Source of the DNA: a virus
Lineage: Duplodnaviria > Heunggongvirae > Uroviricota > Caudoviricetes
Strand: one strand, 5' to 3'
IMG/VR virus record: IMGVR_UViG_2585427621_000003
DNA: 50,225 nt
Shown here: positions 6,001-9,000 of the stretch, in pieces
Layout of the letters: the number at the start of each line of letters is the position of its first letter
Position numbering within the stretch: the first letter of the stretch is position 1
Position numbers: made by a program

Positions 6001-9000
6001 GAAGTATTGCCCGGCGTTCTGTGGGGCGGGGTGGGTGGTTGGTGTATGTAATCTACAATAAAAACTGTTTTTGTGTCAACAGTTTTTAATTGTTGTTTTG
6101 GGCAAAAAAATCCCTCGAAAGAGGGAGTATGAAAATTGTTCAACTCAGATAGAGAAGGGAAATTGTCGCCGAGAATGTGTCACGCTTACAATCTCAATGC
6201 TTGAAGCAGCTACTCTGTACAGGATTATGTAGTTAGGGTGGGTCACGATCTCTCTCAATCCAGAAACCCGTTCGCTTGGTGGATATAAGTACGGATGCTC
6301 AGATAGAGGTAATACCGATGTTTCAATGCGTATTTTTAGTCTACGTGCTGCCGGTGGGTTCTCCTTGGCGATGTAAGTTATGATCTGGCGCAAATCATCG
6401 CGAGCAGACGGTAGCCATAAAATGGGTAACATTACTCGCTCTTGTTAGTTACAGCAATTTGAGCAATAAGATTTTCCATTTCAGCCATTACCTCGTCATG
6501 TGGAATTGCGGGGCGAGTGTCTGCAAGGCTTGACGTTACTTTAGTGCGCAACCATTCGTTGTAACTGTTTTCTTGTTCGGTAGTTTCGAATTCTGAAACT
6601 ATCGGAGAAAGGGCTGTACCCATGGCATAACTCCTCTTCTTGTACTGTGGTCACGCCCGGCGGCTTTTTTGTGCCGCCAGCCACCTAGCAATGGTTTCTT
6701 CCATTGATTTTTTCTTGTCTTTGATTTCTTGAAGCATTTTTTCTTGGTCTTCCTCAGGAAACGCACTAAAAGCTTGGAGCAGTTCGCGTTGGCGAGGACC
6801 AATTTTCATCGTGTCAGGGGTGAAAATTTGCTCACACTCTTCAGGAGGCAATAAAAACCAATGCAATGGATGCCCTGAAACCTCAACCAGTTTATCCAAA
6901 CTTGAGGCTTTAGGTGTAGCCTTACCGCTGACCCATTGTTGAACAGTTTGTTGTGTCACACCAATTCTACGGGCAAGCTCAGCCTGGCTCCATCCAGTTT
7001 CCTGAAGAAGCTTGCTGATTCTGTACATAGATACTTCTAGGGCGCTCATCATTATTCAATTTTACAGGTAAATACTGTTAAAAGCATCACAATAAAAAAC
7101 TGTTGATTGCATACAGTTTTTATTGTAGGCTTTGCTTATAGTTTTTAGAGGAGGGCAAAATGCTAGATAGCACTCGCGAAAAAATTAGGCAGAAATACAC
7201 TCAGGCTGAAATAGGTCGTTATATGGGGGTCGCTCAACAGACTGTTTGGCAATGGTTTAGCTTTGGCGTTCCCCCAAAGCAGGTAATTCCGTTATGCCAA
7301 CTAATGAAGTGGGAAGTTACCCCGCATGAAATCCGCCCAGATATTTATCCTAACCCAACCGACGGTTTACCTGTTGGATGTAAGGTTAACACATCAAATG
7401 CGCCGGAGTTGATTCATGAAAATCAAGCATGAACACATCCGCATGGCGATGAATGCCTGGGCGCATCCGGACGGCGAAAAAGTACCGGCTGCGAAAATTA
7501 CCAAAGCGTATTTCGAGCTGGGAATGACGTTCCCGGAACTGTATGACGACAGCCATCCGGAAGCCATGGCTCGCAATACTCAGAAAATTTTCCGCTGGGT
7601 GGAGAAAGACACTCCTGATGCGGTTAAAAAAATTCAGGCGTTGTTACCAGCGATCGAAAAAGCGATGCCGCCTCCGCTGGTGGCCCGAATGCGCAGCCAC
7701 AGTTCCGCTTATTTTCGGGAGTTGGTAGAGACGAAGGAACGGCTGGTGAAAGATATTGATGATTTCGTTGCATCAGCGATCGTTCTGTTCGATCAGATGA
7801 ATCGTGGTGGCCCGGCAGGAAACACTCTGGCTGTGCATTAATTGGGTAATAAATATGAGTAATGACAAAAAATTGACACTGAGCGTTTACGAAAACAGTC
7901 CGCACATCTGGCGTGGCGGTTTATCTGATGTGGAGCTGGCAGAGTGGTTGATACATAAAGCTAATGCGCTGCTCTGGCGTTTGTCAGCCAGAGAACAGCG
8001 CAAGGAAACCAGAATAAAGCTGGCTGATGCAGAAGCGTGTGCCGGGCTTATTGAGGATTATACAAATCTTGGTATTTCTTCAGCAGAGAGTGATCCCATT
8101 CAGCCTCTGAGCAGGGAGTCAATCCAGCACGCTGGTTGTATGGCACATCTTGTAACTGCTCGTCAACATGAGGTGGGTATTGGATCACTTCCGGCGGGAT
8201 ATTCGCTGATTCCAGAGCTGGTTGAAGCAAGAAAATCAGTTCAGAAAAAGAGAGATGACGCACTTCAATTATTGAGAGAGCACTATGGCGCGATACCAGA
8301 ATGCGAACAGCGTCGATACCCTGAAGGTTATGAATGGATGCAGTCTCTTTTTGAAGTTCGCTAATCAATATGTCGAGACGAAGGTATGTTTCGGCGCGCA
8401 GCCAGGCTCTGTAATCCGGGAGCATTTCGGGGCTGTTACACCAGCGGTTTGTTGCTGCAACATTTAATACATGAGCCTGATAAAGGCTTTTCAAAAAATA
8501 CATGTCGAACCTCCTCTGGTTCTGTCGATTGGGAACCACAGATTATATCCGGAGGAAGGTTCGGCACCAGATGAGGTAGCCATGCGTGATTACGCAAAAG
8601 TTTCTCCGCGATTCTGGCTGGGAGAAACGGGGAGAGAACTTAGAAAGGCGGGTGCAGAAGCGCAAGTTGTTGCTTTTTACCTGATGACATCCCCTCACGC
8701 AAATATGCTGGGTTTGTATTACCTGCCAGTTTTATACCTTGCTCATGAAACCGGGCTTGGTCTGGAAGGGGCTTCAAAGGGGCTTAAAAGGGCTGTTGAA
8801 GCTGGTTTTTGTAGCTATGACCATGATGCAGAGATGGTCTGGGTCCATGAAATGGCAGCCTGGCAGGTTGGGGAAACGTTGAAGCCTGGCGATAACCGTT
8901 GTGCAGGTGTCAGGAATGAGTATGCATCATTACCTGAAAACGCTTTTCTGTCAGTGTTTTACGACAGATATAAAACGGATTTCCATCTGGATGTGAGGCG

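Follow-up and report, generated by a model that had tools for sequence, protein, structure and literature searches.

The probable immunity region of Escherichia coli O157 prophage Sp4: a peptidase-less repressor gene in one operon with a ParE toxin-antitoxin pair, and its predicted operators

The DNA analysed here is IMG/VR virus record IMGVR_UViG_2585427621_000003 (Caudoviricetes), the full 50,225 nucleotides of which are referred to as the window. At positions 6050-7841 it carries a leftward operon encoding a helix-turn-helix (HTH) regulator, an antitoxin and a ParE-family toxin, and, diverging from it, genes for analogues of Cro and CII. A 2-kb region around this locus matches hundreds of E. 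coli O157:H7 chromosomes at 99.9% identity. In the annotation of strain Sakai the locus lies inside “prophage Sp4, lambda-like phage”, with ECs_1069 (“phage repressor protein”) as the HTH gene and ECs_1067 as the toxin gene. The entire window is collinear with strain TR01 at 99.7-99.9%, starting at the integrase beside yccA and extending to tccP2. In strain EDL933, Sp4 goes by the name CP-933M. In O157 genomes there are two copies of this type of toxin-antitoxin (TA) pair, paaA-parE, and a paralogue called paaR1-paaA1-parE1 was reportedly published by Hallez in 2010. One of the two copies is that of CP-933P/Sp12 (paaR2-paaA2-parE2; PMC8630535) and the literature assigns the other to CP-933M, so the operon in the window is the published paralogue paaR1-paaA1-parE1. 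Taken together, the evidence described below makes it highly likely that the defective lambdoid prophage Sp4/CP-933M has its immunity (lysis-lysogeny) switch at 6050-7841, and that PaaR1 is a non-cleavable CI analogue co-expressed with PaaA1-ParE1.

The first gene of the leftward operon, paaR1 (ECs_1069; 6651..7052, minus strand), encodes 133 residues, with a 434-like HTH at about residues 10-67 and a helical C-terminal domain of the PaaR/DicA type at about residues 85-133. The HTH matches Pfam HTH_3 (E=2e-12), and the N-terminal domain of the phage 434 repressor is the best solved relative. It is followed by the antitoxin gene paaA1 (6432..6623, minus strand; 63 residues), the product of which matches the Pfam family PaaA2 (PF21217, E=6e-19, 68.3 bits against a cut-off of 27) and the PaaA2 structure 3zbe (E=1e-20). 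As read from the sequence, the paaA1 stop codon overlaps the ATG of parE1 (TAATG), the antitoxin gene being directly upstream of the toxin gene. The toxin gene parE1 (6145..6432, minus strand; 95 residues) encodes a protein with a match to PF05016 (ParE_toxin, E=3e-17, 63.5 bits against a cut-off of 23) and a full-length match, over residues 1-93, to ParE2 (5cw7, E=3e-36). An intrinsic terminator for paaR1-paaA1-parE1 was found by a terminator scan at 6101..6126 (minus strand), 19 nt past the parE1 stop codon and ahead of the left operator region (OL); it has the stem TCCCTC/GAGGGA and the loop TTTC, followed by T7, and a counterpart hairpin with an A/T run is also present in two of the loci compared below (L006 and L007). 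A preliminary description of this DNA had proposed an XRE-type HTH protein, a 63-residue antitoxin and a ParE-family toxin in one leftward operon divergent from a cro-like gene, and the open reading frame (ORF) map and Pfam searches place all of them where it did. Its suggestion of a likeness to the PaaR-PaaA-ParE systems is borne out by the matches to PaaA2 and ParE2 above and by that to PaaR2 (BLASTP E=2e-20, 42% identity over 98 residues), which is restricted to the linker and the C-terminal domain.

On the rightward side, the cro analogue (7160..7432, plus strand) encodes a YdaS-like HTH protein of 90 residues that matches PF15943 (YdaS_toxin, E=8e-10) and PHROG 35, “transcriptional repressor” (E=9e-29). 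This Sp4 Cro is unrelated to YdaS of CP-933P (no BLASTP alignment, and 17% identity in a forced global alignment); with the Cro of L007 it shares 32% identity, mostly C-terminal. The CII analogue ydaT (7416..7841, plus strand; 141 residues) is nearly identical to the structures 8bt1 and 3c4r (E of about 1e-83) and 86% identical to CP-933P YdaT. At the cro/ydaT junction there is a YdaT operator of the OM type, TTGATTCATGAAAATCAA (7409-7426), the sole match in the window, which has the motif TTGATT-N6-AATCAA that was footprinted for CP-933P YdaT.

The preliminary description had also placed two palindromes with a common half-site on either side of the operon. Two repeats are indeed located, exactly at 6055-6093 and 7089-7126, but the supposed half-site, ACAATAAAAACTGT, is a whole dyad-like 14-bp operator (ACAAT..ACTGT), and each 38-39-bp “palindrome” is therefore two inverted operators, one of 14 bp and one of 15 bp. 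This 14-mer has exactly two occurrences in the 50 kb, 6055-6068 on the plus strand and 7113-7126 on the minus strand. With up to two mismatches allowed, three matches are observed against 0.35 expected, a number reached in none of 100 shuffles. A repeat search of OL against the right operator region (OR) gave inverted matches of 16 nt at 100% identity (OL1/OR1) and 18 nt at 94% (OL2/OR2). In all, five operators of the form ACA(A/G)T-N4-5-A(C/T)TGT are predicted in two control regions of about 70 bp, and no other clustered sites of this kind with A/T-rich centres occur in the window.

The predicted operators are arranged around three promoters, one leading leftward beyond the operon (PL), one rightward (PR) and one for the repressor gene (PRM). 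The PL-like promoter (6050..6079, minus strand) consists of a -35 hexamer TTGACA (6079..6074), an 18-bp spacer and a -10 hexamer TAGATT (6055..6050), and it was called by the promoter scan with 10 of 12 consensus positions. OL1 (6055-6068; 14 bp, ACAATAAAAACTGT) shares base 6055 with its -10 hexamer, and OL2 (6079-6093; 15 bp, ACAGTTTTTAATTGT), which is kept in L006, L013 and L014, adjoins its -35. The PR-like promoter (7103..7131, plus strand), with -35 TTGATT (7103-7108), a 17-bp spacer and -10 TAGGCT (7126-7131), falls below the threshold of the promoter scan and is therefore a prediction, read by analogy with PL. OR2 (7089-7103; 15 bp, ACAATAAAAAACTGT) adjoins the -35 hexamer of PR, and OR1 (7113-7126; 14 bp, ACAGTTTTTATTGT) overlaps its spacer and -10 hexamer. 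PL and PR are thus built alike: the -35 adjoins O2, O1 fills the spacer, and one base is common to O1 and the -10. For PRM, a -10 hexamer TAAAAT is predicted at 7059..7064 (minus strand), ending 6 nt short of the A in the ATG of paaR1. OR3 (7064-7078; 15 bp, ACAGGTAAATACTGT), identical in L006, L013 and L014, lies in the PRM spacer beside the repressor start, and stands to the leftward TAAAAT as the O1 and O2 sites do to the PL and PR hexamers. The operator palindromes were also considered as LexA boxes and rejected, as the CTGT..ACAG spacing is 9-10 bp and not 8.

No Shine-Dalgarno sequence could be read ahead of the paaR1 ATG. Because of this, the short distance of only 6 nt between the -10 hexamer and the ATG, and the same spacing in the paralogue (GATAAT, 6 nt, ATG in L003), the paaR1 mRNA would be leaderless. 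The analogy is with paaR2 of CP-933P, the mRNA of which is leaderless according to 5' RACE, with the start at the ATG, and N-terminal sequencing (PMC8630535).

The window was compared with five loci: L003 is of the CP-933P type, L007 represents a third immunity type, and L006, L013 and L014 are of the window's own type. Identity to the window is 86-88% for YdaT, 65-86% for ParE (65% for ParE2), 62-90% for PaaA (62% for PaaA2), about 95% for the leader that follows PL, and 60-66% for the C-terminal 50 residues of the repressor (60% for PaaR2). For the repressor's DNA-binding domain at the N-terminus it is 16-18% (18% for PaaR2), and the N-domain structures of PaaR2 (7nkv and 8c3k, to which the depositors gave the name “Phage repressor protein CI”) have no match to PaaR1, whose HTH is of another type. 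A repeated motif peculiar to the immunity type is found at OR and again at OL, GTTTAGTAA-type in CP-933P and AATAGC..GCTATT in L007, and around these differing operators the TA genes, ydaT and the PL leader stay homologous. Among loci of the window's own type, the half-sites do not vary, unlike the inter-operator sequence. Between the PaaR1 and PaaR2 types the DNA-binding domain, cro and the operators thus appear to have been exchanged together. Conserved position combined with co-varying sequence is the pattern expected of true operators to which the neighbouring repressor and Cro bind, and it is likewise that of a classic heteroimmune mosaic. The third type, L007 (E. coli 2013C-3492; 2956-3563 and 2183-2456), has a 166-residue repressor with a differing HTH, the same C-terminal domain and the same TA core, and its operators have the form AATAGC-N3-5-GCTATT at both OR and OL.

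CP-933P (Sp12) is the closest point of reference among studied prophages. It agrees with Sp4 in gene order, orientation, the terminator, the position of OL and PL beyond parE, the -10 geometry of a leaderless transcript and the YdaT site TTGATT-N6-AATCAA, whereas the repressor DNA-binding domain, Cro and the operators are different (ACAAT..ACTGT in Sp4, GTTTAGTAA repeats in CP-933P), making the two a heteroimmune pair. PaaR2 has been called “a functional equivalent of CI”; it has no peptidase motif and does not respond to mitomycin C (PMC8630535). Mobility shift assays and footprints on OR have been reported for it, and it represses PR, PRM and PL (Jurenas 2021, PMC8630535), chiefly ydaST and PL, the CP-933P promoter PL933P having been shown to be repressed by PaaR2 and YdaS (PMC8630535). 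Competition between PaaR2 and the Cro analogue YdaS results in bistability, with the CII analogue YdaT assisting PaaR2 (PMC8630535). The OL/PL region of CP-933P is found beyond parE2, and its TA pair is addictive and plasmid-stabilising and may guard the immunity region against replacement (PMC8630535). For the O157 three-component systems it has been reported that ParE is toxic, that the cognate PaaA neutralises it and that PaaR represses (Hallez 2010, per the review PMC4803016). PaaA1 and ParE2 show no cross-neutralisation (PMC4803016), which implies that both TA pairs are active.

The Sp4 switch is proposed to work as follows. PaaR1, a probable member of the DicA/GfoR/PaaR family, would bind through its 434-like HTH to OR1 and OR2 over PR, to OR3 over PRM and to the two OL sites over PL, possibly with looping between OL and OR, and so shut both the rightward operon of cro (ydaS), cII (ydaT) and replication genes and the leftward operon of ydfA, DicF and dicB. 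It would be made from a leaderless PRM transcript that reaches through paaA1-parE1 to the terminator before OL. Cro would compete for the PaaR1 operators, giving bistability, and YdaT, bound at TTGATT-N6-AATCAA, would drive an alternative leftward promoter. Lying on this predicted transcript, the TA pair is expected to be expressed together with immunity. As an addiction module, a role suggested by the paralogue, it may make it costly to lose or replace the immunity region.

The TA pair is the distal part of the repressor transcript, where lambda carries rexAB, and the comparison with lambda cI-rexA-rexB can be taken further. Common to both are a repressor gene transcribed leftward from PRM (on a leaderless mRNA, predicted in the case of paaR1) with accessory genes downstream, divergent cro and cII functions, three OR operators about 24 bp apart, and OL/PL on the far side, in Sp4 about 1.06 kb away. 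Unlike lambda, Sp4 is without an S24 autocleavage domain in the repressor, has a type II TA pair in place of RexAB and a POU-type YdaT in place of CII, possesses only two clear OL operators, and has no N gene after PL. The divergence from cro- and cII-like genes, the operator pairs at OR and the PL-like promoter agree with what the preliminary description held, namely that the HTH protein occupies the position of cI and the TA pair that of rexAB. That the HTH regulator is also the prophage repressor, as it further suggested, is in keeping with the existing annotation of ECs_1069, with the cI-like position and with full-length homology to DicA. Its reading of the locus is correct throughout, yet it is a rediscovery of a published model, as a repressor in the cI position, a TA pair in the rexAB position, the lack of a peptidase and an addiction function are all in print for paaR2-paaA2-parE2 (PMC8630535; PMC9986795).

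The homology of PaaR1 to DicA of prophage Qin extends over the full length (BLASTP 28% identity, E=6e-12). Against the NCBIfam DicA model NF007257 it scores E=8e-14 over profile positions 9-131, but its 51.5 bits are below the curated cut-off of 101, which suggests a protein related to DicA but outside the DicA subfamily. The repressors of Gifsy-1 and Gifsy-2 are 31% identical to PaaR1 residues 11-111, and several annotated phage CI proteins also match. DicA and the Gifsy repressors GfoR and GtgR resemble PaaR1 in their length of about 135 residues, N-terminal HTH_3, helical C-terminal tail with LLxxFxxxPexxQ and absence of Ala-Gly and S24; they also repress a PL-type operon of ydfA-ydfB-DicF-dicB, which for PaaR1 is predicted. 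Unlike Sp4, Qin and the Gifsy phages lack a TA pair in the interval from the repressor gene to PL, and they have known antirepressors: Rem, GfoA and GftA. Cross-talk with the CI proteins of Stx2a phages, which are 45-51% identical to the PaaR1 HTH, was considered and rejected, since their recognition helix (SAQSVQY) and OR sequence differ.

No S24 match, in Pfam or NCBIfam, and no Ala-Gly dipeptide was found in the 133 residues of PaaR1, in agreement with the preliminary description, and Asadulghani 2009 had already noted the Sp4 repressor to be without a peptidase domain (PMC2669165). RecA-stimulated autocleavage is thereby excluded. A second, cleavable repressor was looked for in the PGAP annotation of the genome collinear at 99.7-99.9%, and no separate LexA/S24-type protein is annotated there that could serve as a peptidase-type CI elsewhere in Sp4. 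The only other sizeable HTH protein, of 237 residues (17365..18078, plus strand), has the same length as lambda CI but is an AraC-family regulator resembling YdeO and GadX (NF007407, E=9e-30); it was dismissed as a CI-type repressor and is probably a modulator of host regulons.

Derepression of the switch would thus follow another route, and the one known for this family is a protein antirepressor. In the Gifsy phages the LexA-controlled GfoA and GftA inactivate the repressors (PMC3121763), and in Qin the antirepressor Rem acts on DicA (PMC10448788). None is detectable in Sp4: a tblastn search of the window for Rem gave nothing better than E=0.5, and a credible LexA box is likewise absent, the best CTG-N10-CAG site having 8 mismatches in 20 positions to the consensus. 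An SOS-controlled antirepressor was rejected as a candidate, as the two occurrences of CTGT-N8-ACAG, both in tail genes, are no more than chance would give (12 of 100 shuffles). Where Qin carries Rem, the window has a 92-residue ORF (13700..13978) that is unrelated to Rem and belongs to a PHROG of unknown function. With neither a Rem homologue nor a credible LexA box in the window, a trigger, if any, would come in trans, and could be an antirepressor supplied by another prophage. Circles of Sp4 have been detected only after mitomycin C treatment (PMC2669165), which a trigger acting in trans would fit despite the peptidase-less repressor.

Downstream of PL are ydfA- and ydfB-like genes, then the small RNA DicF (4422-4473, minus strand; RF00039, 76.9 bits) and then dicB (4046-4234, minus strand), in the same order as in Qin. 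Since PL leads into these genes, PaaR1 probably also silences dicB and DicF of Sp4, which are toxic inhibitors of cell division. The PL leader itself (5908-6043, minus strand), of about 135 nt, is conserved at about 95% across three heteroimmune prophage types, shares only its last 35 nt or so with Qin, and has a C-rich 5' end (CCACCCACCCCGCCCC). A structured RNA was rejected for the leader, which folds no better than shuffled sequences (z=+1.4) and has no Rfam match even at E<=1. The leader could serve in Rho utilisation or be linked to antitermination.

The resemblance to phage 434 extends to the recognition helix, which is TQQTVQQ in PaaR1 and TQQSIEQ in the 434 repressor, the HTH aligning to 434 residues 5-60 (E=3e-5) with the glutamines kept at the positions of Gln28, Gln29 and Gln33. 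In crystal structures of the 434 repressor these three glutamines contact the ACAA half-site. Sp4 Cro carries AQQTVWQ, also of the form QQxxxQ. All six operators of the annotated phage 434 genome are 14 bp long and of the form ACAA-N6-TTGT, and 434 OR3 (ACAGTTTTTCTTGT) differs from Sp4 O1 (ACAGTTTTTATTGT) at one base, i.e. 13 of 14 are identical. The Sp4 operators possess the ACAA/ACAG half-sites, with the 14-bp length at the two O1 sites only; three of the five are 15 bp, as are all five in the relatives, against a uniform 14 bp in 434. Phage 434 further differs in having a RecA-cleavable repressor with a C-terminal S24 domain, and in that hex, not a TA pair, follows cI. In L006 (O1 sites at 1904-1918 and 2963-2977), L013 and L014, which are non-O157 loci with a 98% identical repressor, the O1 sites are 15 bp. 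Relative to these, O157 Sp4 has one base fewer in the central A/T run at both O1 sites, and one additional T in the OL spacer keeps the PL spacing at 18. We tentatively propose, while considering it rather unlikely, that PaaR1 and Cro read 434-type half-sites with tolerance for both 14 and 15 bp, and that the parallel shortening of O157 OL1 and OR1 was a selected re-tuning, which could allow partial cross-immunity or cross-repression with imm434-type phages such as 434 and Sf6.

The same shortening has a more destructive explanation, namely that 1-bp deletions in both O1 sites uncoupled PaaR1 from PR and PL, leaving a decayed relic of a switch and a locus that is only a selfish TA cassette. 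The 15-bp sites of three relatives with a 98% identical repressor and the defects of Sp4 in integrase (strain TR01), terminase, capsid and lysis region agree with such decay. We find it most improbable, given that none of the five ORFs is damaged and that their conservation reaches at least 99% in about 435 genomes, that the two O1 sites changed in parallel to an identical 14-mer with the OL promoter spacing compensated, which looks selected and not random, and that a constitutive PL would express dicB and DicF, toxic on overexpression. It is also very unlikely that PaaR1 serves solely as dedicated regulator within a three-component TA module, in a prophage without a working repressor and with an incidental second palindrome: the same operators are found at a strong PL-like promoter beyond the operon terminator and leading away from the TA genes, as well as over the divergent PR of the cro, cII and replication genes, PaaR1 is a full-length homologue of the DicA and Gifsy repressors, and its paralogue PaaR2 primarily represses ydaST and PL. 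These observations have to be set against the original 2010 description, in which PaaR autoregulates a tripartite TA operon that the PaaA-ParE complex represses in part (PMC4803016), and against the mark “D” given to the Sp4 repressor in Table 1 of Asadulghani 2009 (PMC2669165).

A further alternative concerns the TA pair alone. Its location in the rexAB position and co-expression with immunity would suit a system that, like RexAB, excludes superinfecting phages or aborts their infection, and as PaaA2 is degraded by ClpAP and ClpXP, shut-off of host transcription by a phage could in principle free ParE. Tests of the paralogue point the other way, to post-segregational killing and plasmid stabilisation, with no toxin activation in either switch state (PMC8630535); moreover, no PADLOC defence model matches PaaA1 or ParE1 and no phage-challenge data were found, so that exclusion as the main role, instead of addiction, is distinctly unlikely. 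With regard to an immunity switch governed by PaaR1, several points weigh against it. The promoter scan did not call the PR -10 (TAGGCT) or the PRM -35, both of which are weak, and operator length is uneven, with O1 sites of 14 bp and O2/O3 sites of 15 bp. With all five sites at 15 bp in the relatives, the 14-bp geometry that recalls 434 may be derived, or may even be a defect. The SOS-blind repressor alone fails to explain the mitomycin C-dependent circles of Sp4 without a trans-acting factor. Insertion sequence (IS) elements, a broken terminase gene and a truncated capsid gene mark Sp4 as heavily decayed, and parts of its switch may therefore have lost their biological relevance. Finally, the literature search, which did not cover Hallez 2010, returned no experiment on PaaR1, DNA binding included, and no account of its operators.

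This TA type is found in 832 of 5,426 complete E. coli genomes, and the repressor-OR-cro cassette of the window in about 509 complete E. coli genomes. Among 50,697 deposited phage genomes, the ParE type occurs only in Escherichia phage Evi, together with a PaaR2-type regulator. In the immunity region of Evi (LR597642.1, locus L012, 1916-2776) the PaaR2-type regulator is accompanied by PaaA and an unannotated ParE ORF. PaaA and ParE each have their own PHROG family, and neither has a PADLOC defence model. The arrangement and its interpretation are already known for the Sp4 locus and its paralogue, and the analysis mainly confirms the published model, in which, in some O157 lambdoid prophages, the operon that encodes a non-cleavable CI analogue also harbours a ParE TA pair, tying TA carriage to the keeping of the immunity region and uncoupling the prophage from direct RecA-mediated induction. 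To this are added incremental refinements predicted from the sequence: the map of five operators, the 434-like half-sites, module swapping around the TA core, the kinship with DicA and GfoR, and the 14/15-bp polymorphism of O1. What, if anything, inactivates PaaR1, and the effect of the 14- versus 15-bp operator change on the switch, are of modest interest.

Some features outside the switch may be noted. Two identical copies of IS1203 (IS3 family; about 20818-22127 and 25273-26582), each with an ALIL frameshift pseudoknot, flank minus-strand lysis genes, and ISEc8 (IS66 family; about 27660-30030) splits the small terminase gene, an IS pattern that agrees with the published defects of Sp4. Isolated N characters are present at 15 scattered positions of the window (e.g. 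4409, 4533, 18794, 26583, 31881 and 35931); one isolated N is inside ORF 4476..4808, and the region of the immunity switch is free of them. Three tRNA genes followed by the small RNA STnc100 (RF02076, 138 bits) occupy 18107-18623, downstream of the Q antiterminator region. Sp4 also carries a second TA system, of type I, at 13208-13532, composed of a sok RNA (RF01794, 105.6 bits) and a hokD ORF (13320..13532).

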